Origin: Candidatus Bathyarchaeia archaeon
GTDB taxonomy: Archaea; Thermoproteota; Bathyarchaeia; 40CM-2-53-6
Assembly (NCBI GenBank): GCA_050013255.1
Contig: JBEKFP010000001.1
Location: 1,152,001-1,216,000, forward strand
Reading direction: 5' to 3'
DNA length: 64,000 bases
How positions within the stretch are numbered: the first letter of the stretch is position 1; each line of letters opens with the position of its first letter. Positions 40,776-64,000 of this stretch are shown here, one piece after another. A program made the translations under genes and the position numbers. The notes beneath the pieces were generated by a model that was not told the DNA's origin, searched no databases, and saw only the letters and a list, made by a program, of their open reading frames with translations.

Positions 40776-41876
40776 TTGAGTTCTACAGAAAAACCAAAAT
40801 CAAGCAACAAGATGTACATCGGGATAGGAATAATTGTTATTCTCGTCATCGCAATTGGAGCAGGAGTTTACCTATACAACCCAACCCAAGCCCCGTCATC
40901 TACAACTCAGACAATGGTGACCTCTGCAGCAGGCGCAATCAAGATTGCTTTTATCAGCAGCGCGCCAATGGAGGAACCGTGGACCTCAGTCATACACACA
41001 GCCATCAACTACTCAATCCAGTACTACGGCGCAGATAAAATAACGTACAAGTGGACTGAAAACGTCCAGTACTCCGACACGCCCAGAGTCATGCGTGAAT
41101 ATGCAACTAACGGCTTCAATCTAATATTCGTTGACGCATTTGGGGCGGACGACACCGCCCGAGCCGCCGCAAAGGACTTTCCAAACACGTACTTCGTCCT
41201 CGGAACAGATAATCACGTGTTCGGCGACAACGTGGCTGTGTTCGACGACTGGATTCATGAACCCGCTTACATGTGCGGCATGATTGCCGGCAACATAACG
41301 AAGAGCAACGTGATCGGAGTCGTTGGAGGCGTAGCCGACCCCGAGGTCAACAGGCTCATAAACGCATTCAAGGATGGAGCAAAGGCCGTAAACCCCAACG
41401 TCAAGGTTCTAATCACATTCATGGGCGAGTGGTTCAACCCTCCCAAGGCAAAGGAAGCTGCATTAGCAGAAATCAACGCTGGCGCGGATGTTCTGTACAG
41501 TGAACGGGAGGGAGGAATTGAGGCAGCAGAACTGAAACACATACCCGTGTTCGGAAGCCTACAGGATCAATATCAACTAGCGCCCGACGTGGTAATCACA
41601 GGGCCTGTTTGGAACATGTGGCCAACAGTCAAACACGAGATTGACTTAGTGATGCAACAAAAGTGGGTAGCCGAAGATCTCAGATTCTATTCAATGATGG
41701 AGAAGGGCGGTTCAATGCTCGCGCCTTGGCATGACTGGGAGACAAGACTAAGTCCGGACATTGTGGCGATGTTGAAGAAAACTAACGCAGTATCAGCGAT
41801 GGACGCAGTCACGGCCCAGATAATGTCTGGAGCTCTTACTGTCCCGATGGATGAGTCCGAACCAGTATCAGGCTAG
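40776..41876 (+). CDS. BMP-family ABC substrate-binding protein (nucleoside/nucleobase type)
   Basis: N-terminal TM plus Ser/Thr linker, IHEPAY-x-x-G-x-IAG, F-x-x-GAK-x-VNP, GEWFNP. Likely TTG start at 40776. Confidence 0.92.
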   Translation: MSSTEKPKSSNKMYIGIGIIVILVIAIGAGVYLYNPTQAPSSTTQTMVTSAAGAIKIAFISSAPMEEPWTSVIHTAINYSIQYYGADKITYKWTENVQYSDTPRVMREYATNGFNLIFVDAFGADDTARAAAKDFPNTYFVLGTDNHVFGDNVAVFDDWIHEPAYMCGMIAGNITKSNVIGVVGGVADPEVNRLINAFKDGAKAVNPNVKVLITFMGEWFNPPKAKEAALAEINAGADVLYSEREGGIEAAELKHIPVFGSLQDQYQLAPDVVITGPVWNMWPTVKHEIDLVMQQKWVAEDLRFYSMMEKGGSMLAPWHDWETRLSPDIVAMLKKTNAVSAMDAVTAQIMSGALTVPMDESEPVSG

Positions 41877-41900
41877 TGAGGCAGTGCACAGAGGCTAAGT

Positions 41901-41944
41901 TCCATTTTTCCTTCCCATCTTTCTTTTCCATTTTTGTTTTCTTC
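41901..41944 (+). terminator. oligo-pyrimidine tract after the BMP gene
   Basis: TCCATTTTTCCTTCCCATCTTTCTTTTCCATTTTTGTTTTCTTC, resembling an archaeal oligo-U terminator. Confidence 0.5.
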
Positions 41945-41973
41945 TATAGCTTTCGGTTAGGACGGCGCTTCGA

Positions 41974-43491
41974 ATGAATGGGCGCGAATACGCAGTAGAC
42001 ATGAGGGGCATCGTCAAGACATTTCCTGGTGTAGTTGCCAACGATAATGTCGATCTTCAGCTGGAACGTGGGAAGATACACGCTCTCCTCGGGGAGAACG
42101 GGGCCGGAAAGACAACACTGATGAACGTGCTATACGGCCTTTACAGGCCCGACGGGGGCGAAATTCTAGTCGGTGACAAGCGGGTTGTTTTCAACTCTCC
42201 CCAAGACGCCATAGCCGTGAAGATTGGAATGATACATCAACACTTCATGCTAGTACAAGCAATGAGCGTTGTCGACAACATAATCTTGGGGCTGAAGTCT
42301 AACAAAGTCGTGTTAGACGAGGTTTCGGCTCAGAAGAGAATTCGGGAGCTTGCTGACACTTATGGCCTGGAGGTTGACCCAGATAGCTACATTTGGCAAC
42401 TGAGTGTTGGCGAACAGCAACGAGTTGAGATCCTAAAAGCAATCTACAGGGACGCTAGCATCTTAATTCTCGACGAACCGACTGCAGTTTTGACCCCTCC
42501 AGAGATCAAGGACTTGTTCCGAGTTCTTCGCAGAATGAAAGGCGAAGGAAAATCCATCGTCTACATCAGTCACAAACTCGATGAGGTACTGGAAATCAGT
42601 GACAGGATCTCCGTCCTAAGGCTCGGCAAAATAGTGGCAGAGGTCTTGACGAAAGAGACAAGCAAGGTAGAACTCGCTCGTATGATGGTGGGTCGAGAAG
42701 TAATCTTCAGACTCTCCAAGACAGCGGCCAAGACTGGAAAACCGATCCTTGAGGTTCAAGACATTTCCGCAGTGAATGATAGGAAGGCGCTTGCGTTAAG
42801 GAAAGTCTCATTTACCGTCGGGGAAGGTGAGATCCTCGGTATCGCTGGCGTCTCGGGCAACGGACAGCGAGAACTCGCGGAGGTTCTTATCGGGCTGAGG
42901 AAGGTTGCGAATGGAAATGTCAAGATCGGTGGCGTCGATGTTACGAATTCGAGCCCAAGAAAAATGGCCGATATGAGCGTGGGGTTCATTCCAGAGGATC
43001 GGGTGGGAGTAGGCTTAGTGATGAATCTCCCAATTCTCAACAACGCGATTCTGAAAGAGTATCGGAACTTTTCGAACGGCCCGCTTCTGGATTATGCCGC
43101 CGCCTCCGCTTACACGGAACGGATAATCAAGGAATTTGGCGTTAAGACGCCCAACATGCGTTACCCCACAAAGACGCTCTCAGGTGGTAATCTGCAGAAA
43201 CTCATCTTGGCACGTGAACTCGCTAGGGACCCGAGGTTATTAATTGCGTCCCAGCCCACACGAGGGCTTGATGTGGGCGCAACTGAGGAAATACGCTCAA
43301 GACTCATAGAAGAAAGATCTCACGGCCGAGGGGTTCTGCTCATCTCCGAAGACCTCGACGAGATACTGTCCCTGAGCGATAGGATCGCTGTAATGTTTGA
43401 GGGACAGATCATGGGTATTGTTCAAGCTGAGGATGCGAAGCTGGAAGATATTGGACTGATGATGGCCGGGTCCAAGAGAATGGAGGCGTGA
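41974..43491 (+). CDS. ABC transporter ATP-binding protein (CUT2/nucleoside type, double domain)
   Basis: GENGAGKT, LSVGEQQRVEI, LDEPT, LSGGNLQK. Confidence 0.96.
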   Translation: MNGREYAVDMRGIVKTFPGVVANDNVDLQLERGKIHALLGENGAGKTTLMNVLYGLYRPDGGEILVGDKRVVFNSPQDAIAVKIGMIHQHFMLVQAMSVVDNIILGLKSNKVVLDEVSAQKRIRELADTYGLEVDPDSYIWQLSVGEQQRVEILKAIYRDASILILDEPTAVLTPPEIKDLFRVLRRMKGEGKSIVYISHKLDEVLEISDRISVLRLGKIVAEVLTKETSKVELARMMVGREVIFRLSKTAAKTGKPILEVQDISAVNDRKALALRKVSFTVGEGEILGIAGVSGNGQRELAEVLIGLRKVANGNVKIGGVDVTNSSPRKMADMSVGFIPEDRVGVGLVMNLPILNNAILKEYRNFSNGPLLDYAAASAYTERIIKEFGVKTPNMRYPTKTLSGGNLQKLILARELARDPRLLIASQPTRGLDVGATEEIRSRLIEERSHGRGVLLISEDLDEILSLSDRIAVMFEGQIMGIVQAEDAKLEDIGLMMAGSKRMEA

Positions 43492-43494
43492 GAG

Positions 43495-44562
43495 TTGGCC
43501 TTCTTTACAGTCGAGAAACGTTTACTGCCGTCACGGCGACTCAACATCGCTGCGCCTATTGTATCAACGTTGGTCGCTCTGGTCATTTCTGCTGTCCCAA
43601 TCTATGTGGGCGGAGTCAATCCCCTATACGGTTATGGGGAACTCTTGTATGGCGCCCTCGGCGACAAACTCGCTATAACAGAAACTTTCGTGTTGTTCGC
43701 ACCACTGCTGCTCTGCGGTTTGGCGGTCGCACTAGCCTTCACGTGTAAGTTTTGGAACATCGGAGCAGAGGGACAACTCTATTCCGGAGGGTTGTTCGCA
43801 TCATTCTTCGCGGTTTACGCTACATCTATTCCATCGGTTATAGCCATTCCAGCAATGTTGGCCGTGGGTTTCCTCGGAGGGGCGGGATGGGCTGCGATCC
43901 CTGCGATTCTGAAAGTGAAACTGAAAGTTGACGAAGTTGTAACCACCCTGCTAGGCAACTGGATAATGACCTACGCCGTTGAGGCACTTCTGTTCGGCCC
44001 TTGGAAGAATCCTGCTACGGGATGGCCTGAATCGCCCGTAATCTCTGATACAACGAAATTCCCAATCCTCATAGCGGGCTCGAGATTTCATTTTGGCATA
44101 ATCCTCGCACTACTCGTGGCTGTCGTATTCTATATCATAGTTCGGAAAACGAAGTGGGGGTTTGAGCTGCTCGGAATCGGAGGGAATCAGACCGCTTCGT
44201 ACGCAGCTGGCATTAATGTTCCGAGACAAATCATCCTTGCCGCGATTGTCAGCGGGGGCATTGCAGGCCTTGCAGGCGTAGGTCAAGTTGCGGGTATCCA
44301 GTTTCATATGACGACTGACCTCTCGCCGGGTTACGGTTATACTGGAGTGATAATTGCGATGGTAGGCGCCCTTAACCCCATTGGAGTAGTGTTGGCTTCC
44401 TTCCTTCTGGCAGTAGTTGTTCAGGGTACACAAGCGATGCACCGCGCCACAGGCGTCCCTTGGGCGTTGGCGGAGGGCATGCAGGGGATAATCCTCCTTT
44501 GCCTGTTGGTAGGCATTTTCTTCACCAAATATCGCCTGAAGCAAGGTAGGAGGCGCAGTTAA
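43495..44562 (+). CDS. ABC transporter permease
   Basis: WNIGAEGQ, DEVVTTLL, GYGYTG. Confidence 0.94.
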   Translation: MAFFTVEKRLLPSRRLNIAAPIVSTLVALVISAVPIYVGGVNPLYGYGELLYGALGDKLAITETFVLFAPLLLCGLAVALAFTCKFWNIGAEGQLYSGGLFASFFAVYATSIPSVIAIPAMLAVGFLGGAGWAAIPAILKVKLKVDEVVTTLLGNWIMTYAVEALLFGPWKNPATGWPESPVISDTTKFPILIAGSRFHFGIILALLVAVVFYIIVRKTKWGFELLGIGGNQTASYAAGINVPRQIILAAIVSGGIAGLAGVGQVAGIQFHMTTDLSPGYGYTGVIIAMVGALNPIGVVLASFLLAVVVQGTQAMHRATGVPWALAEGMQGIILLCLLVGIFFTKYRLKQGRRRS

Positions 44563-45501
44563 TTGTCGTTACTTGATGCCACCCTGATCACCGGCGTGCT
44601 TGCGATGACGCTGAGAATGGCAACTCCATTGATTTACGGGACTGTAGGGGAAACGTTCTCTGAACGAGCAGGAATCCTAAACTTGGGAATAGAGGGCATG
44701 ATGTTGATGGGTGCAAGCATAGGGTTTCTCGTTGGATTTACTACGGGAGACCTATGGCTAGGAGTAGCCGCAGCTGCACTCACAGGGCTCGTGTTGGGAT
44801 TAGTAATGGCGTTCCTGACGGTATCAATAGGCGCCCAACAGCATGTTGCTGGTTTGGGGCTCACGATAGCCTGCTCGGGTTTCAGCTTTTACATTTACCG
44901 AATATCCGTGGCCAATGTTGGAGGCGTTGCACCACACGTAGAACCATTCGCCACAATTCCCATTCCATACCTGAGTCAAATACCGATCATTGGAGAGGTC
45001 CTGTTCAACCAGCACGCGTTGGCTTACATTGGGTTGATCCTTGTACCAGTCTCAGCCTTCGTACTCTTCAGAACCAGATTTGGCCTTTCTCTTCGCGCTG
45101 TCGGTGAAAACCCGAACGCTGCTGCGACAGCAGGCATCGACGTGTTCAAGATGAGATACATCAGCCTCATCATAGCGGGTGTCCTCAGTGCCATTGGCGG
45201 GGCTTGGCTCTCATTGGCACAGTCGGGCATGTTCCTTCCGGGACTTACGCAGGGGCGAGGATGGGTGTGTATTGCGTTGGTTGTTTTCGCTAACTGGATG
45301 CCCTACAGAGTTCTAGGCGGGGCCATACTGTTCGGTGGAATAGACGCCGTTCAACTGTCGTTGCAGGGAGTTGGTTGGAACATACCTTACCAACTATTCC
45401 TCATGCTTCCTTACGTGCTAACAATAGTGGCCCTAGTAGCGGTCTCTCGACGAGCAAGAGCCCCAGCCGCGCTTCTTCTTTCGTACAAGAGGGAAGATTG
45501 A
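44563..45501 (+). CDS. ABC transporter permease
   Basis: SERAGILNLGIEG, LRAVGENP, GRGW, MLPYVLT. Confidence 0.94.
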   Translation: MSLLDATLITGVLAMTLRMATPLIYGTVGETFSERAGILNLGIEGMMLMGASIGFLVGFTTGDLWLGVAAAALTGLVLGLVMAFLTVSIGAQQHVAGLGLTIACSGFSFYIYRISVANVGGVAPHVEPFATIPIPYLSQIPIIGEVLFNQHALAYIGLILVPVSAFVLFRTRFGLSLRAVGENPNAAATAGIDVFKMRYISLIIAGVLSAIGGAWLSLAQSGMFLPGLTQGRGWVCIALVVFANWMPYRVLGGAILFGGIDAVQLSLQGVGWNIPYQLFLMLPYVLTIVALVAVSRRARAPAALLLSYKRED

Positions 45502-45568
45502 ACTTTCTCGTTACTGCAAACGGCATGCGGCTATCACACTAAAGTGTAGAATCCCGAGAGCGACAAGT

Positions 45569-46798
45569 ATGAGCCCCGACCTTATAGTTCGGAACGCGAG
45601 GTTGCGTTCGGGAAAGGTTTGTGACATATCGATCAGTGATGGAAAATTCGAGGAAATTGGCGAACATCTGAATAGTTCGGCAGGGCGAGTAGTGGACGCG
45701 AACGGTAATTTAGCAACTGAATCCTTCCCAGTTGCCCATCTGCACCTCGATAAGGTCATGACTGGCGCGTTCGCGGAAGAAGCCGTCCTGGTTGAGTATG
45801 AGAAGCCATCCATGGGCGGTGCGATGACCGCCATTGAACTCGCATCGAAAGTGAAGGAACATTACGTGGAATCGGAGATCCTAGAACGAGTTCGACATGT
45901 ACTGACTGACGCTGAGTACTACGGTGTAAGCCACGTTAGAGCCTTCGCCGACGTGGACACCAAAGCAAAGTTGATCGGTGTCAAAGCACTTCTAAAGGCA
46001 AGGGACGAATTCAAGAACCAAGTTGACATTCAGATTGTTCCTTTTCCACAAGACGGAATCATTAGGGAACCTGGGGCAGAGGAATTGCTTTACAAATCCA
46101 TGGACCTAGGCGCAGATTTGGTCGGTGGAATCCCATGGATAGAGCTAACGGAGGAGGATTCGAAGAAGCACATTGACATCGCATTCGAGATTGCGAAGAA
46201 GTATGATGCCGATGTGGCTATGCTGACTGATGACGCAGGCGATCCTGAGCTCAGGACCACTGAGTACTTGGCAAAGTCCGCAATGAAGAATGGTTGGGAA
46301 GGCAGAGTTACTGCCTGCCATGCTAGGGCGACTGCGCTTTACAATGATGTTTACCATAGAAAGTTCGCTGCCCTGCTGAAGAAGGCGGGTGTCGGAATTG
46401 TCACCGACCCTCATACTGGTCCGTTGCATGTGCGCGTGAAGGAGCTTTTGAACGCCGGCGTGACTGTGGCGCTCAGCCAGGACGATGTTTACGATGCGTA
46501 CTATCCGTATGGACGGTGTAACATGCTCGAAATCGCCTTTCTGGCAGCTCATCTGTTGTGGATGACGTCGAACCGGGATCGCGAGATACTGTACGATATG
46601 ATTACCAAGAACCCTGCCAATATTATGGGAATCGACGACTATGGCTTGGCGAATGGAAACGCTGCAGACCTTGTCATACTGAATGCTCAGGATCTAAGGA
46701 CCGCCCTCACATATCACACAGAACCGCTTTACGTCATCAGGAATGGCATGGTCACATGTGAAACACGTGTGAACAGAACCCGCAATGCCGAGAATTAG
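45569..46798 (+). CDS. CodA-like amidohydrolase-superfamily deaminase
   Basis: HLHLDK, FPQDG, VGGIP, CHA, QDD-x-x-D-x-YYPYG. Confidence 0.88.
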   Translation: MSPDLIVRNARLRSGKVCDISISDGKFEEIGEHLNSSAGRVVDANGNLATESFPVAHLHLDKVMTGAFAEEAVLVEYEKPSMGGAMTAIELASKVKEHYVESEILERVRHVLTDAEYYGVSHVRAFADVDTKAKLIGVKALLKARDEFKNQVDIQIVPFPQDGIIREPGAEELLYKSMDLGADLVGGIPWIELTEEDSKKHIDIAFEIAKKYDADVAMLTDDAGDPELRTTEYLAKSAMKNGWEGRVTACHARATALYNDVYHRKFAALLKKAGVGIVTDPHTGPLHVRVKELLNAGVTVALSQDDVYDAYYPYGRCNMLEIAFLAAHLLWMTSNRDREILYDMITKNPANIMGIDDYGLANGNAADLVILNAQDLRTALTYHTEPLYVIRNGMVTCETRVNRTRNAEN

Positions 46799-46893: not shown

Positions 46894-47985
46894 TTGTTTT
46901 CCGAGATGAACCATTTGGAAGAACTTGAAACAAACTTAGTGGATTCCATAATTCAGGAATACGGAGTCAATGTCGACGCTACAAGACCCGCTAACCTAAC
47001 CAAAACAAGACTCAATCCGCAGACTAGAGTCTTTGAAGTCCAACACTCATCATTGAATGCCTTCATCATCGACACTCCTATGACCCGAAGAATCGCTTGC
47101 CACCCACATGTGGTGGGGGATGAACTTGAGAACCTTACACTCGAGGCAGCAGAACAGAGCTTGCCTGCTATTCTTGAACTATCACAAATCAATCCCACTA
47201 GGAAGGGGGCAATAGTGTTTGAGCAAATCCTCAGAGCCGCTCCCGGGTACAACCTGCATCAGGCAGCGAGCCGAGTAATTCCAGGCAATTATAGAACCGT
47301 CAACATTAGGCCTCGCTACACTCACACATCCTATCGAGATCACGACGGCATGGTTCACCGACAACTCGACATAGTTTACGAAGATTTTGCGGAACTCCCC
47401 GCAAACAGAGAGGTTTTCTTGATAATGCAAGATACGGTGGCAAGCAGTAGGTCAGCCGAAGTCAGCATCGAAGCCGCAATTAATCATTGCGAAGAAGTCG
47501 GCTCGCATATCGCCAAGTGGATTCTTTATGGGTTCATCGCTCTAGAAGGACTCAAGCTGCTCGACAAAATTGCGCGAAGCCACCGCATTCCATTAGTAGC
47601 ATTTGCAATGGGAAATCTGACCGCTCTCTGCGCCAACAATTACGACATGCCACTATACGGTGTAGACGAATGGCTCTGGCGCAAGGATCATTCGATCAGC
47701 AAGCTTGGTGCATTGCTCGATAGAGACACATTTGTGGAATATCTACACGAATTTGTTCCCGGGTCGGATCAACCCGGTGATTGGTCCGCACGTCAAAGTA
47801 GACTGTTCAACGGCCAGGGTTATGAAGGAGGTGACATAGCTGGCCACCTAGAAAACAGCATACGACTAATGAAAAGTCTGCTAGAGATCGGAGAATTGAA
47901 GGATTGGCAGGAAAAGATAGCATCAGATGAGCTACTCAGACTGGAGAAGGGATTGGAAAAGGTAAGGGCGGATCCTCTGAGATAG
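46894..47985 (+). CDS. divergent type I phosphoribosyltransferase (UPRTase-like) protein
   Basis: ILRAAPG (compare UPRTase ILRAG) and a PRPP-loop-like IMQDTVASSRS. Confidence 0.6.
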   Translation: MFSEMNHLEELETNLVDSIIQEYGVNVDATRPANLTKTRLNPQTRVFEVQHSSLNAFIIDTPMTRRIACHPHVVGDELENLTLEAAEQSLPAILELSQINPTRKGAIVFEQILRAAPGYNLHQAASRVIPGNYRTVNIRPRYTHTSYRDHDGMVHRQLDIVYEDFAELPANREVFLIMQDTVASSRSAEVSIEAAINHCEEVGSHIAKWILYGFIALEGLKLLDKIARSHRIPLVAFAMGNLTALCANNYDMPLYGVDEWLWRKDHSISKLGALLDRDTFVEYLHEFVPGSDQPGDWSARQSRLFNGQGYEGGDIAGHLENSIRLMKSLLEIGELKDWQEKIASDELLRLEKGLEKVRADPLR

Positions 47986-51580: not shown

Positions 51581-51697
51581 GCTATAAGTCGATTTTGGCG
51601 AGGTTTCAACGGTGTGAATGGGAATTATGTTAAATGCATAATCGAAGCGGTCGTACAGTTGCAGTTGATTAGAGGACTGCTAGTGTGGTTGGGGAGA

Positions 51698-55013: not shown

Positions 55014-57375
55014 TCATCTTCAAGCGGTTTTTCGCTTCCTCGATGAGTTCAGGCCTTTGTTGTTGGATTGCTCTCCAAACGTTCTCGGGTGACATCGGCA
55101 ATTTCGTAATCTGGACTCCAATTGCATGAAAGATAGCGTTGGCAATCGCTGGGGCAACACCAATCATAACAAGTTCACCTATGCCCCTAGCACCGTGAGG
55201 GCCGTCTTTCTGTGGAGTCTCAATAAGAATTCCGTCGATCTCACTAGGTACTTCTTTGGCTCTGAGTATCTTGTAGTTAGATAAATTCGGGTTCAGAACC
55301 CAACCTTGTTCGTCGAAGAGAATTTCTTCGTGAAGTGCAACGCTCTGTCCCATGATGAAGCCGCCATCAATTTGACCCTTCAATAGGAGTGGGTTGATCG
55401 CTTTGCCGACATCATAGGCCTGAGACGCCTTGATGATTTCAATGTCCCCCGTCAAGACATCAACTTCTACTTCGACGCCGGTACCACCGAACGTGTGGAA
55501 GATTGTGGGGACTCCCTGGCCCGTGTCGGGGTCAAGATAGGTCGTTAATGCTGACATGAATTTGCCCCGGCCTATGATTGGCCCTCCAATCGAACGTCCG
55601 TCTGGATATGTGTACCCAAACACAACCTCGCTGAGTTGTAGCCCGTGCCACGGAACACCGCTCACAAAGACCCTTTCGTCTGCTATCTCAAGCTCTTCGG
55701 GCCGCACTTTGAGGACTTGGGCTGCAACTTCCCTTATCTGATCCTTAGCATCCTTGGCCGCATCTATCAACGCGGCGCCATCAGTGAAAAGCCCGCGGCT
55801 ACCCACCGTCTGCCATGTGTAAGCCGACGTATCCGTGCTACGTACAAGCCCGACGTGAACCTTATCGAATGGTATACCCAATTCATCGGCGACGAGTTGG
55901 CAGAGCCCCGTAGGGGTGCCTTGGCCGAATGATCCAGTTCCGATTAGGAGATCGACTGAAACATCTTCATTGAACTTTATGATCGCAGAGGCAGCAGCGT
56001 TTGGTGGTTGTGCTGGACCCTTGAGGCAGAGTGCCATACCCTTCCCCCTGAATCTGCCTGGACGTGTGGGCTTCTGGGAGGGGAGCCCCCAACCGATTGA
56101 TTTGGCAACAGACTTTGCAACGCTCACAGGGTCTCCAGCGTCTTCGCGGAGTCGCTCTCCTGTTCCTGTTTCCGAGATTCCTGGTTTCAGTAAATTCTTC
56201 AATCTGATTTCGACTGGGTCGAGCTTTAATTTTTCAGCCGCCATATCCATGACGCGTTCCAGCGCCCAGTGGCTCTCTGGGTAGCCGAATCCTCTCATCG
56301 CACTTGTGGGGACTTTTGTTGTGTAAACTGCGAGCGACTCGCATTGGATGTTCGGGACCTCGTAGCATCCTTCGGAAGAATATCCGGCGGCTCGGCAGAC
56401 GTTCACTGTGTAGTCTGCGTAGCCGCCCGCGTCCATGACGAAGCGAGCTTTGTACGCGAACAGTTTCCCATCTTTCTTGAACCCCGCCTTAACAGATGCG
56501 TGAAATCCTTCTCTTACAGGTGCAGAGCAGAATTGTTCCTTTCTCGACAGGACGAGCTTAACGGGCTTGTAGCCTGCCTTCTTGGATAACAGTGCAACTA
56601 GCGGCTCCCACCCGATTCCAACTTTGCCCCCGAAGCCTCCTCCGCACAGAGGGGCCTTGATGATCACCTTGTTGACTGGAATCCCAAGCGAGAGAGCCAT
56701 CAGATAACGTGTGGAGAAGGGCGATTGGGTGCTCGTCCAAATCTCGACCGTTCCATCCTTCTTGTAATCGGCTATTATGGACTGTAGTTCCATGAAGCCG
56801 TGGCTTACATGTGGAATGTCGAATTCTCCTTCGATGATTACGTCTGCTTCTTGTAGGCCTCTCTCAGCGTCACCCCTCACCAGTTTGAATTGGTTCGCAA
56901 TGTTGGTGCCTGGGATAGGTTTGAAGGCGGGAGAGACTCGGTACTCTGACATCCTTTCATGTATTATCGGAGCATTGGGCTTCAGCGCCTCACCGGGGTC
57001 GAAGATGCCGGGTAACGGCTCATATTCCACTTCAACTTGATCGATACCGCGCTCAGCTGCTTCCAATGATTCTGCGATAACCGCGGCGACAGGATGGCCA
57101 ACCCACCGGACTTTGTCGACGGCGAGGACGTCTCTGTCGCCTACGTAAATGCCCAGCCTGTAAGGAAATTCGGCGCCCGTTGCAACAGCAACAACACCTG
57201 GCACGCTTTGGGCTTTGCTCGTGTCAACCTTGACGATTCTCGCATGTGCATGGGGGCTCGTTACCAGTTTGGCGTACAGCATTCCCGCGAGTTCGATGTC
57301 GAATGCGTAGGTTGCGGTTCCAGTGACTTTGAGGTAGGAATCATACTGAGGGATGGATTTTCCAATGTAACCCAT
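55000..57375 (-). CDS. xanthine dehydrogenase family molybdopterin subunit, copy 2
   Basis: KVTG-x-A-x-Y, SPHAHA, GGGFGGK, AMRGFG, GQG, GARGIGE. Confidence 0.95.
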   Translation of the reverse strand: MGYIGKSIPQYDSYLKVTGTATYAFDIELAGMLYAKLVTSPHAHARIVKVDTSKAQSVPGVVAVATGAEFPYRLGIYVGDRDVLAVDKVRWVGHPVAAVIAESLEAAERGIDQVEVEYEPLPGIFDPGEALKPNAPIIHERMSEYRVSPAFKPIPGTNIANQFKLVRGDAERGLQEADVIIEGEFDIPHVSHGFMELQSIIADYKKDGTVEIWTSTQSPFSTRYLMALSLGIPVNKVIIKAPLCGGGFGGKVGIGWEPLVALLSKKAGYKPVKLVLSRKEQFCSAPVREGFHASVKAGFKKDGKLFAYKARFVMDAGGYADYTVNVCRAAGYSSEGCYEVPNIQCESLAVYTTKVPTSAMRGFGYPESHWALERVMDMAAEKLKLDPVEIRLKNLLKPGISETGTGERLREDAGDPVSVAKSVAKSIGWGLPSQKPTRPGRFRGKGMALCLKGPAQPPNAAASAIIKFNEDVSVDLLIGTGSFGQGTPTGLCQLVADELGIPFDKVHVGLVRSTDTSAYTWQTVGSRGLFTDGAALIDAAKDAKDQIREVAAQVLKVRPEELEIADERVFVSGVPWHGLQLSEVVFGYTYPDGRSIGGPIIGRGKFMSALTTYLDPDTGQGVPTIFHTFGGTGVEVEVDVLTGDIEIIKASQAYDVGKAINPLLLKGQIDGGFIMGQSVALHEEILFDEQGWVLNPNLSNYKILRAKEVPSEIDGILIETPQKDGPHGARGIGELVMIGVAPAIANAIFHAIGVQITKLPMSPENVWRAIQQQRPELIEEAKNRLKMSGGN

Positions 57376-57528: not shown

Positions 57529-58002
57529 CTAGTGTGGATTAATCTTTGAAGCGTCTAATATTGCGTTAATGATTTGCCGGTAGCCCGTGCATCTACAGAG
57601 GATTCCCTCAACGGATTCTACGACTTCTTCGCGGGTGGGTGACGGGTTTCTTTTGAGTAGAGCTGTTGCGACGAGGACTGCTGCCGGCGTGCAGAAACCG
57701 CATTGAAGTGCTCCATGCTCGATGAACTTCGTTTGAAGAGTGGAAAGGGCGCCTTCTTTGGTAATGCCTTCGATTGTTGTTATTTTGTGTGCGTTCGCTT
57801 CGACAGCAAGTACAAGACAGGATTTCACGGGCTCGTCATCAAGAAGGATTGTGCAAAGGCCACAATCACCACGTTCACACGCAGGTTTGGCGCCAGTTAA
57901 TCCAAGTTTGTGTCGCAGGATCCAAAGCAAGGTCTTGTTGGCGTCAGTTTCGATGGTGTGTCGTTTTCCGTTCACTGTCAGCTCAATCAAATGTTTCGTC
58001 AA
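57529..58002 (-). CDS. xanthine dehydrogenase family [2Fe-2S] subunit (CoxS-like), copy 1
   Basis: CERGDCGLCT, SCL, QCGFCTP, CRCTGY. Confidence 0.94.
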   Translation of the reverse strand: MTKHLIELTVNGKRHTIETDANKTLLWILRHKLGLTGAKPACERGDCGLCTILLDDEPVKSCLVLAVEANAHKITTIEGITKEGALSTLQTKFIEHGALQCGFCTPAAVLVATALLKRNPSPTREEVVESVEGILCRCTGYRQIINAILDASKINPH

Positions 58003-58003
58003 C

Positions 58004-58867
58004 TCAGCTAGCCTCCCACAATTGCTTCACCAATCTCCTGGTCAGAACTTTCACTAGGTTGACGCGGTATTCCTTCCCAGCTCTCACGTCCGTAATTGGG
58101 GAGACGGCTTTCATTACGACTGGTATGGCCTCGTCAACAAGTTCGTCGACTGGCCTGTCTTTCCTGAAGATTTTTTCGGCTTCAAAAGCTCGAACCGGTG
58201 TGGGCGCTACTGAAGCGTACGCAAGCCTGATTTCCTTCCCAGACCCACCGGTAGGAGCCGCGAGCCCGCCCACTCCGACCACTGCCAAGTCCTCACCCAT
58301 CGTTCTTCGAGCCTTCATGTAGGCGCTGATTGATTTCTCAGGAGGTATGGGAAGATCGATGGAAGTAACTAGCTCGTTACCGGCAAGGATGTTCTTCTTC
58401 ACGCCGGTAAAGAATTGATGAATTGGGACCTTCTTTGTGCCATCTTGCGTTGAGATGTTCACCGTTGCATTGAGAACCAAGAGGGCTGGCGCTGTGTCTG
58501 CTGCGGGGGAGGCATTGCAAATATTTCCGACCAAAGTTGCTCGGTTTCGAACCTGAAAGTCTCCGATGGTGCTCGCAGCTTCTCTCAGAATTGGGTAGTT
58601 CTTTGAGACCGCGTCATGACGAATTAGCCGATTCAGCGTCACACCGGCCCCGACCGTAAGCCCGGACTTATCGTTGAATGATAGGTTTTGAAGTTCTTTG
58701 ACTCTTTTGATGTCGATTAGGTATTTTGCGGGTTCCTGTCCGCCCCTTAGGCTGACTAGTAGGTCCGTCCCACCAGCTAGAGGTCTTGCATCCTTTCCGT
58801 ACTTGTCTAAGAGTGAGAATGTTTCTTGGAGGCTTTCAGGGCCGAAGTAGTCGAACTTTGGGAGCAT
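58004..58867 (-). CDS. xanthine dehydrogenase family FAD subunit (CoxM-like), copy 1
   Basis: AGGTDL, QVRNRATLVGNICNASPAAD, DVRA-x-x-EYR. Start at MLPKF. Confidence 0.94.
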   Translation of the reverse strand: MLPKFDYFGPESLQETFSLLDKYGKDARPLAGGTDLLVSLRGGQEPAKYLIDIKRVKELQNLSFNDKSGLTVGAGVTLNRLIRHDAVSKNYPILREAASTIGDFQVRNRATLVGNICNASPAADTAPALLVLNATVNISTQDGTKKVPIHQFFTGVKKNILAGNELVTSIDLPIPPEKSISAYMKARRTMGEDLAVVGVGGLAAPTGGSGKEIRLAYASVAPTPVRAFEAEKIFRKDRPVDELVDEAIPVVMKAVSPITDVRAGKEYRVNLVKVLTRRLVKQLWEAS

Positions 58868-58872
58868 GCATG

Positions 58873-61221
58873 TCACCTGTTTCTTGTGAGCAGTTCCGGC
58901 TTCTGTTTCTTGATTGCAGCCCACACCCGTTCCTGCCTCATCGGAAGGTCGAACAGCTGCACTCCCGAGGCATCGAAAACGGCGTTCGCAATTGCCGGAG
59001 GTATCGAGAGCATTGTAAGCTCTCCGATGCCTCTCGCGCCGTACGGGCCATCGGATTGTGGATTCTCGATTAATGTGACAACGTGTTCTTCAGGCATGTC
59101 TGAGGCTCTGGCAATTTTGTAATCGGTGAAATTGCTATTGAGCATCGCTCCGGCTTCGTTGTAGACGTAACCCTCCATCAACCCGATGCTCAACGATTGG
59201 AGCATCCCCCCGTACACCTGCCCCAGTACAAGGAGGGGGTTGATGGTTTTCCCTATGTCGAATGCTGAGGCGACTTTGAGAACTTCGATTTCTCCAGTGT
59301 CCGGATCGAGTTTAATCTTGACTCCCTGCGCCCCGAAAGTCCACTTCAATGCCGGAAATCCTTGGCCCGTCTCAGGGTCCAAGTAGGTTAGCCCGCGCGG
59401 AACGTATGAGCCACGCCCGATGACGGGGCCGCCTATTGCCGAACCATTAGGGTATGTGTAACCCATAGCGAATTGTTGAATGGGTATCCCTTTGTCGGGT
59501 TGCCCTCGTGGAAAGACCATTTCGTTTTCGAGGATTAGTTCCGATTTGGAAACCCTGAGGGCTTGTGATGCCATGTCGATGATCTGTTCTTTCGCATCCC
59601 GTGCAGCACTGATTACTGCCTTCCCTTCCATGAAGAGGTTCCTACTTGCGACTGTCTGCCATGAGTAAGGTGTCAGGTCTGTGATTCTCTCTGGGACGAC
59701 ACGGATTTTCTCAATTGGTAAGCCTAATTCTTCAGCAGCCATCTGCGCCAGACTGGTTGTCGTCCCCTGGCCGATTTCAGTTACACCAACGGCCAGGCTG
59801 GCGCTTCCATCTTCATTGAACTTTATGATGGCAGATGAGCCTGCATTCGGCGGCATCGCTGGGGCTTTCCAAAGGGCCGCGATACCCATTCCGTATAGCT
59901 TGCCGTCTGCGGCAGGCGGTTGTTTTCCTCCCCACCCAAGTTTTTCCGCAACCGTTCTGATGCACTGATCCACTCTCCCAGCGTCTTCCCTAAGCTTCTC
60001 GCCTGTAGCTGTAATCGAGCCTGGTCGGAGAGCATTTCGTAGCCGAATTTCAACCGCGTCGATGCCAAGCTTGTTGGCGAGGATGTCCATCTGACGTTCT
60101 ATTGCCCACAAGAACTCGAGATGGCCGAAGCCTCGGAATGCTGTTCCATATGGGTGGTTCGTGTAGACGGTAATTGAGTCGCAGTGAATGTTCGGAACTT
60201 CGTATGGGCCGGTGCAGGCGTATCCGGCAGCGCGGCCAATGTTGACGCCATAGTCCGCATAAGCACCAGCATCGTACACGTACTTTATTTGTTCCGCGAC
60301 GATTTTGCCTTTTGCGTCAACCCCTGTCTTGATCCATCCGTAGAATCCTTGCCTGAGTGGAGCGGTTGTAAGTTCTTCCTCTCGAGTCAAGGAGAGTTTG
60401 ACTGGGCGTCCTTCGGAAAACTTGGATAGCAAAACTACTAGGGGCTCAAAGTTGATGCCCGCCTTACCTCCGAAACCTCCGCCGACATGGGGTACGTGAA
60501 CGTTGATTTTTTGGAGTGGAATTCCAAGCGCGTGGCTCAGTATGTACCTAACCGCGAAAGGTGATTGGGCGCAGGTCCAGACCTCGGCGCTTCCGTCTTG
60601 GAAGTACTGGGCTATGCATGCGCGCGGTTCCATGGCCGCATGGCTTACTTGTGGCATTGAGAATTCGTTCTCAACGACAACGGTTGCGTTTTCGAAACCT
60701 GACTTGATATCGCCTTTGCGCACTTTAAAGATGTTCGCAATGTTTGTTCCGGGAATAGGGGTGAAGACAGGGGAGTGTTCGTATTGAGCCAAGTTTTCGT
60801 GAACTAGCGGTGAACCTGGCTTCAGAGCCTCGTTCACATCAAAAACAGGCGGCAGTGGTTCATATTTCACATCGATGAGGTCGATTGCTTCCTCAGCTGC
60901 TTCCTCACTTTCAGCCGCAACGGCTGCGACTGGCTCCCCGGCCCACCTGACCTTGTCTTTCGCCAGAACCATCTTATCACGTACGTACAAGCCCATTCTG
61001 TAAGGGAAGGCTTGACCTGTAATGGCGGCTTCAACACCTGGATATTTTTCCGCCTTCTTCACGTCGATGCTAAGAATGCGAGCGTGTGCATGTGGGCTCC
61101 GGAGGAACTTGGCGTACAGCATGCCCGAGACTTCTAAGTCCGCAACAAACTTCGTCGTTCCAGTAACTTTCTCGAACGCATCGACACGGGGTATGCTCTT
61201 GCCAACGTACTTGTAACTCAA
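58873..61221 (-). CDS. xanthine dehydrogenase family molybdopterin subunit, copy 1
   Basis: RVDA-x-x-KVTG, SPHAHA, GGGFGGK, AFRGFG, EIGQG, GARGIGE. Likely TTG start at 61221 (track start 61281). Confidence 0.95.
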   Translation of the reverse strand: MSYKYVGKSIPRVDAFEKVTGTTKFVADLEVSGMLYAKFLRSPHAHARILSIDVKKAEKYPGVEAAITGQAFPYRMGLYVRDKMVLAKDKVRWAGEPVAAVAAESEEAAEEAIDLIDVKYEPLPPVFDVNEALKPGSPLVHENLAQYEHSPVFTPIPGTNIANIFKVRKGDIKSGFENATVVVENEFSMPQVSHAAMEPRACIAQYFQDGSAEVWTCAQSPFAVRYILSHALGIPLQKINVHVPHVGGGFGGKAGINFEPLVVLLSKFSEGRPVKLSLTREEELTTAPLRQGFYGWIKTGVDAKGKIVAEQIKYVYDAGAYADYGVNIGRAAGYACTGPYEVPNIHCDSITVYTNHPYGTAFRGFGHLEFLWAIERQMDILANKLGIDAVEIRLRNALRPGSITATGEKLREDAGRVDQCIRTVAEKLGWGGKQPPAADGKLYGMGIAALWKAPAMPPNAGSSAIIKFNEDGSASLAVGVTEIGQGTTTSLAQMAAEELGLPIEKIRVVPERITDLTPYSWQTVASRNLFMEGKAVISAARDAKEQIIDMASQALRVSKSELILENEMVFPRGQPDKGIPIQQFAMGYTYPNGSAIGGPVIGRGSYVPRGLTYLDPETGQGFPALKWTFGAQGVKIKLDPDTGEIEVLKVASAFDIGKTINPLLVLGQVYGGMLQSLSIGLMEGYVYNEAGAMLNSNFTDYKIARASDMPEEHVVTLIENPQSDGPYGARGIGELTMLSIPPAIANAVFDASGVQLFDLPMRQERVWAAIKKQKPELLTRNR

Positions 61222-61287
61222 ATCTCGCACGCAGAAAGGTTCACGCTTATCCAAAGCCTTGTGCTTGGCGTAGACACTCAAGCTCGC

Positions 61288-61728
61288 CTATTGAGCAACC
61301 TTCTGGCTGACGCAATCGAGGGTCTGAGTGATGATTTTTTGGGCTGCGTTCTCGAGTAGGCCTTTAGCGATGCTTCCTAGGGGGCCACTTATCGTGGCGT
61401 CCGCAGCCCAACTCAATTCTGTGCCTTCAGGGACTGGGTTGCAGTTGATTGAAATCTCTGCTTTGAATGCGCTCGTTACGCCGGAACCATCCACCAGCAG
61501 TTTCGCATGATGATTTACAGGGTCTTCCTCCGTCACTCTACTGTTAACTCTGAACGATCCTTTGATGAATCCAATGCCTATCTTCGTTTTTGCCTCGATC
61601 TTTTTTCCCTCAGTTATCTTGTACTCCTCGACTCCGGGTAGGCACTGAGCGATTGATTCAGGCGTCGAAATGAAATTCCATAACTTTTCGACAGGGGCCT
61701 TTACAACCGCTTTCGATTCAAAATGCAA
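61288..61728 (-). CDS. coxG: CoxG/SRPBCC family protein
   Basis: LW-x-F-x-x-x-P-x-x-I-x-x-CLPG, IG-x-IKG-x-F, G-x-LGS. Confidence 0.88.
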   Translation of the reverse strand: MHFESKAVVKAPVEKLWNFISTPESIAQCLPGVEEYKITEGKKIEAKTKIGIGFIKGSFRVNSRVTEEDPVNHHAKLLVDGSGVTSAFKAEISINCNPVPEGTELSWAADATISGPLGSIAKGLLENAAQKIITQTLDCVSQKVAQ

Positions 61729-61891
61729 GAAGGAAACACGAACTTCGACTCGCCTAAGCGGCTATATTGCTGTGCTGTTCCAATCCTAAGGGTAAGAATA
61801 GCTTCACGCAGTGGATTCTATTACCGCTAAGCGCGGTACTTACACAGTTCTTATAAAATCCTGAACAAGAGCGTACAATCGATGATGAAGA

Positions 61892-62659
61892 ATGAAACTG
61901 ATTGACCTGTCACAACCACTCAACCAGGAAACGCCCTTCTGGCCGCTCTACCCACCTTTCGAAGTCAAGTTCATCAAGAGAAAGGCTGAGCATGGAGTAA
62001 ACGCCCAGTATATCATGACCTCAAACCACATGGGAACCCACCTTGATGCGCCCCTTCATTTTGTGACCGGAGGCAAAGACATAGAGAAGATCCCCCTCGA
62101 ACAGCTCTACGGACCAGGCGTGATAGTCGATGTCAGCGATGTTGGAGACCTAGGTATTTACACGCCGGATATGGTGGAAAAAAGAGTGCAGCTTCGCGAC
62201 GGAGACATTCTTCTCCTCCATACCGGGTTCCACAGATATTCGTGGTACCAGCCGCAGGGCATGGCCGACGAGGAGAGATACATCCACCGACACCCAGGCC
62301 CAACGAGGGAATGGGTGGATTGGATACTGGGACGAAAAATCAAGCTGTGGGGCGTCGACGCGGTCTCAACCGACCACCCAATGAACCTGCCCATAGGGAG
62401 ATTTCTGCCGAGAATCGCTCCGAAAGTACGCGCCTTATGTGAGAAGAAGTTTGGAAAGGAGAATGTGGACAAACTATTCCCGGAGGAGGATTACCAGTTA
62501 ACACACAACGCTTTGTTTCCACACGATTGCATCCACATTGAAAACCTCGGTGGAGATATTGAGAAACTGCTGAACAAGCGCGTGACAATTGGTTGCTTCC
62601 CTTGGAAGTTCCGTGGTGGGGAAGCTGCTTTTGCTAGGGTTGTCGCGTTTGTAGATTAA
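61892..62659 (+). CDS. cyclase family (kynurenine formamidase-like) metal hydrolase
   Basis: DLS, HMGTHLDAP-x-HF, GVD-x-x-S-x-D, H...IENL. Confidence 0.92.
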   Translation: MKLIDLSQPLNQETPFWPLYPPFEVKFIKRKAEHGVNAQYIMTSNHMGTHLDAPLHFVTGGKDIEKIPLEQLYGPGVIVDVSDVGDLGIYTPDMVEKRVQLRDGDILLLHTGFHRYSWYQPQGMADEERYIHRHPGPTREWVDWILGRKIKLWGVDAVSTDHPMNLPIGRFLPRIAPKVRALCEKKFGKENVDKLFPEEDYQLTHNALFPHDCIHIENLGGDIEKLLNKRVTIGCFPWKFRGGEAAFARVVAFVD

Positions 62660-62682
62660 AACGGATCATTCCTTTGTTTTTC

Positions 62683-62982
62683 TTAGCCTCCGCCCACGAT
62701 TTCCAAAACGTCAACGCTGTCTATCGTGACCATGTCGTGTTCGAGGAGTGGAGTCCTTAAGCCCTCTAGCATTTTGACGCTATGCCCATTAACAAGCATG
62801 ATTAGGTTGGCGCTCATCTCTTTCGTTCCTGGGTCGAATATGTAACGGCTGAAATCCGGGCCAATCCTTCGTGTGAGCTCCTCCAAGAGGTCACCAACGG
62901 TTTTTACTGTTTCAGCAACTTCGATTTCATCAGAACCTGCAGCCGTTCTTGCACGGCCATGCAATTTGACTCGTATTGCCAT
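62683..62982 (-). CDS. MoaD/SAMP ubiquitin-like protein
   Basis: Beta-grasp pattern (TV-x-DLL, LVNG) and C-terminal GGG. Confidence 0.88.
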   Translation of the reverse strand: MAIRVKLHGRARTAAGSDEIEVAETVKTVGDLLEELTRRIGPDFSRYIFDPGTKEMSANLIMLVNGHSVKMLEGLRTPLLEHDMVTIDSVDVLEIVGGG

Positions 62983-63282
62983 CACGCCCACCCACAAATA
63001 CTATGTCGACAAGGCTTTGCCGAAGCCTCCTAATTCGGTTAACGTTTGGTTTTCGCCTAACGACCAGCATTAACGTTAAGGTTCGAAATCGGCGTCTGCA
63101 TTTTGTCATGCGGCGGCTGCAGCGAATCTTGGGTTAATCTCGGGTTGTGTTGGCTCTCTCTGCCCGTGGGTAGTTTGCAAAAATAATGGGGACCCATTAC
63201 AGTATGAACTTGTGTTTCTCGGGTAAGAGCAACACTGCAAAGGCTTTAATTCAAAATGAGTGCCACCTCATATCGAGAAAAT

Positions 63283-64000
63283 ATGAAACAATCAATGACA
63301 GCGGTTGCTTTAATCGTAATGCTTGTCGTCGGAGTTGTAATCGGCATTTTCGTCGGGCCCTCTATGATGCCAAGTCAAGGCGGAATGAGTACAGTAACTA
63401 CAACGGTCGGCGGTGGTGAGGCTAACGCTATCGGGAAACTCAAAGTAGGCCTCATACTGCCAATAACGCCAGAAGACTATTCGTGGAACTACCAAGCGGA
63501 CAAATCAATCAAGTTACTGGGCAGTCAGTTTGGCTTCAACGCTACTGTAGCAGAGAACCTCTTTGATGGAACCAAAGCCGAACCCGTTGCCACTCAATGG
63601 GCAAGCCAAGGCTACAATGTGATCATCGGACAGGGCATCCAATACCAAGACATGTTCATCAAAATCGCTCCACAATTCCCCAACACCCTCTTCCTTTGCG
63701 TTGACTGCTTCAAAGGCGGCCATGACGGCACAGACCCAAGTAATGTTGGCGATGTCTGGTGGTACATGGCTGACGGCGCCTACCTAATGGGTCTACTAGC
63801 AGGAAACATGACCAAGACCAACAAACTGGGCTTGATTGGAGGTGGCCGGGTTCCCTCAATTTGGGCTGGCCACGAAGCTTTCAAGCGCGGAGCTCTCCAT
63901 TCGAACCCCAATGTTCAGTTCATCGAAACATGGATGCCATTCTCGTGGGCCGATGTGGCGGGAGCAAAGAAATCAGCAGAACAAATGGCAGACCAAGGCG
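63283..64000 (+). CDS. second BMP-family substrate-binding protein (3'-partial, absent from ORF track)
   Basis: Manual translation MKQSMTAVALIVMLVVG...LKVGLILP...DYSWN...GYNVIIG...AYLMGLLAGNMTKTNKLG...FKRGA...NPNV. Frame is open to the window end. Confidence 0.9.
   Translation, partial: MKQSMTAVALIVMLVVGVVIGIFVGPSMMPSQGGMSTVTTTVGGGEANAIGKLKVGLILPITPEDYSWNYQADKSIKLLGSQFGFNATVAENLFDGTKAEPVATQWASQGYNVIIGQGIQYQDMFIKIAPQFPNTLFLCVDCFKGGHDGTDPSNVGDVWWYMADGAYLMGLLAGNMTKTNKLGLIGGGRVPSIWAGHEAFKRGALHSNPNVQFIETWMPFSWADVAGAKKSAEQMADQG

Follow-up and report, generated by a model that had tools for sequence, protein, structure and literature searches.

We analyzed a window of 64,000 nucleotides of archaeal DNA (G000:C1:1152001-1216000, from a genome of 2.46 Mb in three contigs). 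It contains an island of genes grouped around a three-subunit enzyme that resembles AllFGH, the oxamate carbamoyltransferase of Escherichia coli. Gene classes were assigned by Pfam and NCBIfam profile searches of the window proteins. Besides the AllFGH-like trio, the island encodes two molybdenum (Mo) hydroxylases of the xanthine dehydrogenase (XDH) family, a cyclase-family amidohydrolase, a GNAT-fold protein, and an ATP-binding cassette (ABC) transporter with a substrate-binding protein of the BMP type. An earlier sequence-only reading of this DNA had listed these classes, and all of them were found at or close to where it had placed them. However, the island does not stop at position 64000, where that reading had ended it. 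It measures ~31 kb in total and passes the window end by ~8 kb. In the continuation stretch (L003, whose position 1 is window position 63000), the next 7.8 kb (L003:257-7803) encode the components of a second transporter (BMP2, two permeases, and an ATPase), followed by an ORFan and by second copies of the GNAT-like and cyclase genes. An Alba-domain gene starts the unrelated genes past the far end of the island.

The nearest kin among public genomes were Bathyarchaeia metagenome-assembled genomes (MAGs) from peat and soil. Two sets were used for comparison. Co-occurrence was counted in 401 genomes of the phylum. Gene neighborhoods were compared in 62 related loci, made up of 20 AllG-centered stretches (from 12 AllG-positive genomes) and 42 loci from named MAGs; the island proteins were mapped onto these loci, and the other open reading frames (ORFs) were then called. 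Because the sampled genomes are related to each other, and the AllG-positive genomes and loci share ancestry, all co-occurrence counts given below are descriptive only and are not statistics.

The trio is encoded by adjacent genes for an AllH-like (DUF2877) subunit (49349-50266, minus strand; Pfam AllH, 72.4 bits), an AllG-like (DUF1116) subunit (50276-51580, minus strand; Pfam AllG, 283 bits), and an FdrA/AllF-like subunit (51614-53317, plus strand, divergent from AllG; Pfam CoA_binding and Ligase_CoA). By Pfam, this corresponds to the three-subunit architecture of oxamate carbamoyltransferase. The AllG-like protein was 46% identical to E. coli AllG and 45% to YahG, and the FdrA-like protein was 42% identical to YahF and 35% to AllF. 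Over about 110 residues, one third of the protein, the AllH-like subunit was 30% identical to AllH and 26% to YahE. Judged by these identities, the trio is as close to the uncharacterized E. coli YahEFG as to AllFGH. The FdrA-like protein scored 400.7 bits with the NCBIfam FdrA model (cut-off, 433). E. coli AllFGH was shown experimentally to be an oxamic transcarbamylase, which in oxalurate, an N-acylurea, cleaves the bond between the carbamoyl group and nitrogen (PMC11326118). The same three Pfam families make up the E. coli system, which also includes the carbamate kinase AllK (PMC11326118, PMC9843812). The same chemistry, phosphorolysis of an N-acylurea to carbamoyl phosphate, is presumed by analogy for the archaeal enzyme. 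The settings of the two systems differ. E. coli has the kinase in the operon, whereas here it lies elsewhere; allB, allC, allD, and allE are absent from this island; and the constant partners of the trio are the cyclase, the Mo-hydroxylase, and the GNAT-fold protein, which the E. coli system lacks. The E. coli yahEFG-yahI-yahJ cluster likewise joins a paralogous trio to a CodA-like protein (YahJ) and a carbamate kinase-like protein (YahI), but the Mo-hydroxylase, cyclase, GNAT-like gene, and BMP transporter present here are all missing from it.

The carbamate kinase that had been anticipated beyond the window was found in the same genome, 147 kb from the island. A carbamate kinase-like gene was present in all 27 AllG-positive genomes of the sample, compared with 145 of the 401 genomes overall, and it adjoins the trio in 7 related loci. 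A second nitrogen-compound locus was noted about 145-172 kb upstream of the window (G000:C1:979600-1007200). It holds two further XDH-family trimers (about 34% identical to L2 of the island), a third BMP-ABC transporter, a TRZ/ATZ-type deaminase, and the carbamate kinase of the genome, flanked by two carbamoyltransferase paralogs, both under every NCBIfam cut-off, with cysteine-synthase-like and threonine-synthase-like genes in between. The carbamate kinase locus was considered as an anaerobic purine cluster of the ygeW/ygeX/hyuA kind. This assignment was rejected on the NCBIfam results, in which the PALP proteins were synthase-like, the amidohydrolase was of the TRZ/ATZ type, and the carbamoyltransferases remained below the cut-offs. 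The argument that purines are handled at that locus was dropped, as NCBIfam did not support it.

The two Mo-hydroxylases are encoded on the minus strand as sets of small (S), medium (M), and large (L) subunits: trimer 1 at 53578-54111 (S), 54117-55013 (M), and 55000-57375 (L), and trimer 2 at 57529-58002 (S), 58004-58924 (M), and 58873-61281 (L). Both are complete XDH-family L-M-S sets of the same Pfam architecture (S: Fer2_2, with two 2Fe-2S domains; M: FAD_binding_5 and CO_deh_flav_C; L: hammerhead, with Ald_Xan_dh_C, and MoCoBD_1/2). The longest ORFs overlap by 52 nucleotides for L2/M2 (58873-58924) and by 14 nucleotides for L1/M1, and the M start codons possibly lie further downstream. L1 was mapped to the bovine XDH numbering by alignment. 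The equivalents of Gln767 (Mo site) and Glu1261 (catalytic) were invariant in L1, L2, the L subunit of a bacterial cassette described below, and E. coli XdhA, and the equivalent of Arg880 was kept in the L subunits. The equivalent of Glu802 was Val in L1 and Ala in both L2 and the bacterial L subunit. No NCBIfam equivalog cut-off was reached: the XdhA models gave 485-536 bits against a cut-off of 780, and glyceraldehyde dehydrogenase models also scored below their cut-offs. The nearest solved chain for L1 was 4-hydroxybenzoyl-CoA reductase (336 bits). The trimers therefore share with XDH/CoxLMS-type Mo hydroxylases the L-M-S architecture, the catalytic Glu, the Mo-site Gln, Arg880, and an accessory CoxG gene, but differ from XDH in the replaced Glu802, the missed equivalog cut-offs, and the closest solved L chain. 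By the Glu802 position and the equivalog score, they do not appear to be bona fide purine-specific xanthine dehydrogenases. The CoxG-like SRPBCC protein (61288-61728, minus strand; Pfam COXG, 90 bits) adjoins an L1-type trimer in 14 related loci, where the labels L1-type and L2-type denote best-hit identities. A small MoaD/ThiS-fold protein (62683-62997, minus strand; Pfam ThiS, 35.8 bits) scored 47.4 with the NCBIfam model moaD_arch (cut-off, 49.5). In 7 related loci its gene is a neighbor of FdrA or AllH, and several loci also have MoeA genes nearby.

Cyclase 1 (61892-62659, plus strand; Pfam Cyclase, 130 bits), transcribed divergently from the trimer/CoxG block, is a predicted metal-dependent amidohydrolase and the candidate ring opener. 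It keeps the HxGTHxDxPxH metal motif, and among solved chains it is nearest to kynurenine formamidases and isatin hydrolases, with which it has the Cyclase domain and this motif in common. Isatin hydrolase is a member of the cyclase family that can open a cyclic amide. With the arylformamidase model, cyclase 1 scored 70 bits against a cut-off of 223. A cyclase gene stands beside the trio in most related loci, archaeal and bacterial, and this constant linkage to an AllFGH-like enzyme is a feature of the present genes, not of the characterized members of the family. Since the L subunits keep the equivalents of Gln767, Arg880, and Glu1261, and the cyclase keeps its metal motif, both are predicted to be competent catalysts.

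The GNAT-fold protein of 240 amino acids (48530-49252, minus strand), a core member of the island, matched no Pfam or NCBIfam model and was assigned by fold only. A structure model built from an alignment of homologs (pLDDT, 85.6) gave 353 Foldseek matches with E<=0.001 among 500 counted, and all 50 of the matches listed were GNAT acyltransferases, with a TM-score of about 0.5. The protein has an R-x-x-G-x-G motif at R135-G140, in which R135 and G140 were invariant in 26 homologs; many charged residues were also invariant, and the acyl-CoA-binding motif was apparently intact. From the model, the protein is predicted to be a divergent member of the GNAT superfamily. Its family comprises 570 homologs, bacterial ones included. 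As a guess, held weakly, it couples an acyl moiety to coenzyme A (CoA) or stands in for an amidase. An amidase-signature gene adjoins FdrA in five related loci (L033, L036, L068, L069, and L092; roughly three lineages, a small sample), and amidase-signature and GNAT-like genes never occurred in the same related locus. The two may be alternative solutions to one step. In four loci (L086:13182-14713, L089, L061, and L042), a pair of thiolase-like and DUF35/ChsH2 zinc-ribbon genes directly follows the GNAT-like gene; this pair is absent from the present window.

Transporter 1 is encoded on the plus strand by BMP1, the substrate-binding protein (40734-41876; Pfam Bmp, 115.7 bits), an ABC ATPase (41974-43491; Pfam ABC_tran in two stretches), and two permeases (43495-44562 and 44563-45501; Pfam BPD_transp_2 in each). 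Its ATPase and permeases were 35-46% identical to those of transporter 2, which begins the second module with BMP2 (63256-64000 in the window and ending at L003:1384, plus strand; Pfam Bmp) and continues with permeases and ATPase at L003:1345-4996. The sequence-only reading had called the BMP-ABC transporter nucleoside-type. The comparison with solved chains pointed to free bases: the nearest chain for BMP1 was AtzT (117 bits) and that for BMP2 was 3S99 (94 bits), which was deposited with adenine bound; the crystals of both contained a free purine base as ligand. The nucleoside-binding TmpC/PnrA (2FQW) was not among the 12 solved-chain matches of BMP1 and matched BMP2 weakly (27 bits). AtzT binds guanine and hydroxyatrazine, with an affinity of 0.11 μM for guanine compared with 0.6-1.6 mM for uracil, thymine, and cytosine (PMC6834077). 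In an alignment made against that study, BMP1 kept the equivalents of Trp194 (stacking) and Glu165 of AtzT but not those of Ser97, Asn218, and Asn220. As three guanine-contacting residues are lost, the ligand of BMP1 would differ from guanine. Because guanine and adenine are the ligands of the nearest solved BMPs, and relatives use NCS2 permeases instead, the substrate is probably a free base, and the island transporters are predicted to be of nucleobase-binding kinds.

Nearly all parts of the island except the AllFGH-like trio are present in two paralogous copies. The copies were 29% identical for BMP, 46% for the ABC ATPase, 35-43% for the permeases, 50% for the cyclase (cyclase 2, L003:6802-7803), 51% for the GNAT-like protein (paralog 2, L003:6031-6768), and 53, 35, and 51% for the L, M, and S subunits of the trimers. 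AllG is a single copy in the genome. Among the relatives, some genomes (G026 and G378) pair the trio with an L2-type trimer only, many (Nitrososphaerales and Conexivisphaerales) pair it with an L1-type trimer only, and some have both. Because all upper-pathway parts are paralogous and relatives have one trimer type only, this layout suggests two parallel upper modules that feed one AllFGH-like enzyme and serve two related substrates, uracil and thymine being one possible pair. The sequence-only reading had instead proposed that one ring is hydroxylated twice, by the two trimers in sequence, before it is opened. Such an order would suit the successive hydroxylations carried out by known XDHs and the side-by-side, same-strand arrangement of the two trimers, which is also seen in the closest Bathyarchaeia relatives. 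However, the duplication also covers the transporter, cyclase, and GNAT-like genes, and many genomes manage with the trio and one trimer of either type, so that we consider action in sequence very unlikely.

An AllG-like gene was found in 27 of the 401 genomes, patchily across families. In the 62 loci, the companions of the trio were repeatedly a cyclase, one XDH-family trimer, CoxG, a GNAT-like gene, and a BMP-ABC transporter. Their order varied among Bathyarchaeia, Nitrososphaerales, Conexivisphaerales, and Caldarchaeales. The surroundings of GNAT-like homologs supported the linkage independently. A bacterial MAG carries a compact operon of nine genes in the order GNAT-AllH-AllF-AllG-cyclase-XDH M-S-L-NCS2 permease, an Anaerolineales MAG carries a doubled cassette, and an Acidilobales contig contains GNAT, NCS2 permease, AllG, AllH, cyclase, and AllF. 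The genes, which had been proposed to belong together from this one stretch, hence form a cassette that is linked again in other archaea and in bacteria. Its core is the transporter, the Mo-hydroxylase with CoxG, the cyclase, the AllFGH-like trio, and the GNAT-like protein.

Linkage of this kind bears on an alternative in which the trio scavenges ready-made ureides (oxalurate, biuret, or triuret) and the Mo-hydroxylases, cyclases, and GNAT-like proteins are unrelated to it, serving for example in aldehyde oxidation or as formamidases. A 2025 study reads allFGHK as genes for oxalurate use; in ammonia-oxidizing archaea allFGHK reportedly adjoins biuH, and in a Nitrososphaerales MAG that is not an ammonia oxidizer it adjoins bmpA-nupABC (PMC12625717). 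Scavenging would also agree with some AllG-positive loci that have no XDH trimer in reach (for example, Pelearchaeum and Acidilobales) and with the sub-cut-off scores of the trimers for glyceraldehyde dehydrogenase. Against this, the linkage of the trio with the cyclase, trimer, and GNAT-like genes persists across many rearrangements and across domains, up to the nine-gene operon; the GNAT-like gene occurred in 14 of the 401 genomes, all 14 of them AllG-positive, and never without AllG; and no biuH-like isochorismatase was seen in the window. Because the cross-domain synteny is hard to reconcile with scavenging, we regard this alternative as quite improbable.

Genes of (methyl)malonyl-CoA metabolism were a further class of neighbors. 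Methylmalonyl-CoA mutase is near the trio in 8 related loci and a carboxyltransferase in 8; OAD_beta is near it in 4 loci, adjoining the carboxyltransferase in three, and a biotin-carrier protein was near it in the one locus checked (L041). Together, carboxyltransferase, OAD_beta, and biotin carrier are the components expected of a sodium-pumping (methyl)malonyl-CoA decarboxylase. In 4 loci the trio has an epimerase-like glyoxalase-fold protein nearby, and in one locus PrpD with a PrpB-like lyase. In one bacterium, a uridine phosphorylase (above the NCBIfam cut-off) adjoins the GNAT-like gene and a carboxyltransferase.

Three genes outside the core lie between transporter 1 and the first GNAT-like gene. 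The accessory CodA/AtzC-like amidohydrolase (45569-46798, plus strand; Pfam Amidohydro_3) scored 238-271 bits with the NCBIfam cytosine-deaminase subfamilies, under their cut-offs (best, 270.6 compared with 438). The closest solved chains were AtzC (194 bits) and E. coli CodA (175 bits), and identity to E. coli YahJ was 26%. The N-terminal HxH is present, and two mid-alignment His residues of AtzC are replaced by Leu and Asp, in a region where the alignment is possibly imprecise. The small deaminase (48023-48484, minus strand; Pfam dCMP_cyt_deam_1) matched yeast cytosine deaminase end to end with 127 bits, compared with 72 for TadA and 53 for Bacillus subtilis guanine deaminase. It keeps the H-A/G-E and PCxxC zinc motifs of the cytidine deaminase fold and the C-terminal helix with Trp152/Asp155. 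The equivalents of yeast Asn51, Glu64, Phe114, Trp152, and Asp155, which we take to be substrate contacts, are all kept, and the protein is predicted to be a cytosine deaminase of the yeast (Fcy1) type and an accessory feeder of the route. The third gene encodes a protein of 363 amino acids (46894-47985, plus strand) from an unnamed family, assigned by fold only. In Foldseek searches with a model from a homolog alignment (pLDDT, 79), the top matches were uracil and adenine phosphoribosyltransferases (TM-score of 0.55 over the target), and the model has an extra C-terminal helical region. We predict a type I phosphoribosyltransferase fold, base specificity aside. The labels "UPRTase-like" and "GNAT" of the sequence-only reading hold at the level of the fold, but neither protein matches a Pfam or NCBIfam family.

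Among the 62 related loci, the Fcy1-type deaminase and phosphoribosyltransferase-like genes were found in none and the CodA-like gene in few. For this reason deamination, which had been proposed as the first core step, was removed from the core, and these three genes are lineage-specific, local additions. The phosphoribosyltransferase-fold family comprises 317 homologs, mostly from Bathyarchaeia/Thermoproteota with some from bacteria, in varying genomic contexts, two of which are unrelated to the island. With these contexts and the lack of a counterpart in the related loci, its gene was rejected as a pathway member, and the protein is probably not part of the pathway.

Taken as a whole, the statement that the island specifies a catabolic route in which a free nucleobase-type ring is broken down without oxygen, with a pyrimidine favored, has in our judgment about an even chance of being correct. 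The general scheme of import, Mo-hydroxylation, opening by the cyclase, and phosphorolysis to carbamoyl phosphate is somewhat more probable, and pyrimidines (uracil/thymine via barbiturate) as the substrate are put forward tentatively, at rather less than even chances. Every step was inferred from gene content and comparison. The BMP-type ABC transporter would import the base. In this genome, the Fcy1-type deaminase, perhaps together with the CodA/AtzC-like amidohydrolase, would turn amino into oxo forms, and cytosine, perhaps also 5-methylcytosine, would enter via the Fcy1-type enzyme. An XDH-family trimer would use water to place an oxo group beside a ring nitrogen (uracil to barbiturate; thymine to 5-methylbarbiturate), and hydrolysis of the resulting cyclic imide by the cyclase would open the ring and give an N-acylurea, either ureidomalonate or its methyl derivative. 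The single FdrA/DUF1116/DUF2877 enzyme would phosphorolyze the acylurea to carbamoyl phosphate and malonamate or methylmalonamate, in the way that AllFGH acts on oxalurate. Carbamate kinase would make ATP from the carbamoyl phosphate, and the carbon skeleton would pass into (methyl)malonyl-CoA metabolism, with the GNAT-fold protein as the likeliest link to CoA. A uracil-type ring reaches an N-acylurea in two steps, hydroxylation next to N1 followed by one imide hydrolysis, and the opening of barbiturate gives the bond type that AllFGH cleaves in oxalurate. Malonamate or methylmalonamate carbon as the product would fit the (methyl)malonyl-CoA and propionyl-CoA neighbors. The nine-gene bacterial operon, with its permease, hydroxylase, ring opener, trio, and GNAT gene, matches the proposed minimal route. 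DNA of the island was matched in 20 metagenome runs from peat and wetland, which points to an anoxic setting; for the 8.9-kb core, none of the metagenomic matches listed was an RNA dataset.

The hint toward pyrimidines comes from the replacement of Glu802 by Val/Ala, the match to the yeast-type deaminase, the uridine phosphorylase, and the (methyl)malonyl-CoA neighbors. Of the examples offered by the sequence-only reading, the series cytosine, uracil, barbiturate, and ureidomalonate was the best fit to the evidence added by the Fcy1-type deaminase, the uridine phosphorylase, and these neighbors. The same logic could apply to a purine or another heterocycle (xanthine/hypoxanthine from adenine/guanine, hydantoin/parabanate, a pterin, or a triazine-like base), which would be converted to oxalurate or another ureide and then phosphorolyzed by the AllFGH-like enzyme. 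Several matches lean this way. Both L subunits score best with the NCBIfam model XdhA, although below its cut-off; AtzC and AtzT are the nearest solved chains to the CodA-like protein and BMP1, respectively; and the ligands of the solved BMPs most similar to those of the island are guanine and adenine. The NCS2 permeases of relatives, with their higher xanthine-permease scores, and the adenine deaminase beside the Anaerolineales cassette likewise speak for a purine. On the other hand, Glu802, on which xanthine binding in XDH depends, is replaced by Val or Ala in the trimers, and a pyrimidine is indicated by the Fcy1-type deaminase and the uridine phosphorylase. In general chemistry, the hydrolytic opening of xanthine or urate yields no N-acylurea in one step, and purine carbon skeletons do not explain the (methyl)malonyl-CoA/propionyl-CoA neighbors. 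The sequence-only reading had listed no uricase, allantoinase, or barbiturase in the window. This was borne out in the whole genome, where uricase gave no match and allantoinase gave sub-cut-off model matches only, at distant loci and none in the island; the AtzD/barbiturase family (PF09663) also gave no match, in a search that found none in the control genomes either, so that its sensitivity is unproven. A purine or other heterocycle as the substrate is rated as rather unlikely.

Several observations weigh against the proposed pyrimidine route. The solved relatives of the BMPs bind purines and bind pyrimidine bases poorly (PMC6834077). The NCS2 permeases of the relatives scored 229 bits with xanthine-permease models compared with 115 with uracil-permease models, both below the cut-offs, and the Anaerolineales cassette has a true adenine deaminase at its flank. 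NCBIfam equivalog cut-offs are reached neither by the Mo subunits nor by FdrA or the CodA-like protein, and the Fcy1-type deaminase was unique to this genome among the loci examined. Genes of (methyl)malonyl-CoA metabolism are common housekeeping genes in these archaea, and with related loci the adjacency counts overstate independence; in this genome, methylmalonyl-CoA mutase lies on another contig. The genome has no dedicated amidase, its sole amidase-family gene being far from the island, and the role of the GNAT-fold protein, the least understood part, is unexplained.

Pyrimidines are catabolized by reductive, Rut, URC, and aerobic oxidative routes. The enzymes of the Rhodococcus-type oxidative pathway are uracil/thymine dehydrogenase, barbiturase, and ureidomalonase, and we know of no gene that has been assigned to the dehydrogenase step. 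These three activities are the ones named for Rhodococcus and related aerobes (PMC3758960, PMC4051656). The route proposed here would share with that pathway the intermediates (uracil/thymine, barbiturate, and ureidomalonate) and a first hydroxylation with water. It would differ in that an unrelated cyclase opens the ring, the genome having no AtzD/barbiturase-family match (with the uninformative control mentioned above), in that the ureide is phosphorolyzed with conservation of energy and not hydrolyzed to urea, and in its anoxic setting. In its boldest form, the proposal is a widespread anaerobic "oxidative" pyrimidine pathway in archaea and bacteria, with an XDH-family uracil/thymine dehydrogenase, a cyclase-family analog of barbiturase, an AllFGH-like ureidomalonate phosphorylase, and ATP formed via carbamoyl phosphate. 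The GNAT protein would pass (methyl)malonyl to CoA by a new reaction, and the upper part would here be split into uracil- and thymine-specific modules. We consider this full form speculative and unlikely.

AllFGH in E. coli and allFGHK in nitrifiers were known already. In the searchable literature, which leaves out most subscription journals, we found no account of a linkage of AllFGH with Mo-hydroxylase, cyclase, and GNAT-like genes. What this island adds is a version from an archaeon in which the upper pathway is duplicated, the transporters are of the BMP type, and a cytosine deaminase of the yeast type is present. If the proposed route is correct, it would be a further pyrimidine route, free of oxygen and conserving energy by substrate-level phosphorylation, and it would provide genes for the uracil/thymine dehydrogenase step. 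Roles would follow for the YahEFG-like paralogs, a large branch of "cyclases," a divergent GNAT family, and many unassigned XDH-family trimers. Bathyarchaeia of peat and soil and Nitrososphaeria that do not oxidize ammonia would live partly on nucleobases from necromass, with a bearing on carbon and nitrogen turnover in wetlands. The published reading of archaeal allFGHK has so far been oxalurate scavenging alone (PMC12625717).

Two further genes were noted at the edges of the modules. An ORFan of 319 amino acids (L003:5055-6014, equivalent to window positions 68054-69013) separates transporter 2 from the second GNAT-like gene; it matched no Pfam or NCBIfam model and had no homolog in the 62 related loci. 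Directly upstream of BMP1, an acetoacetate-CoA ligase is encoded at 38608-40578 (872 bits, above the NCBIfam cut-off). It was considered as an activator of malonamate, but none of the 62 related loci has an equivalent, and it was therefore rejected and left out of the island. Further upstream (21156-33246), a cluster resembling Mvh, Hdr, and fumarate reductase was flagged, which may be consistent with an anaerobic lifestyle.

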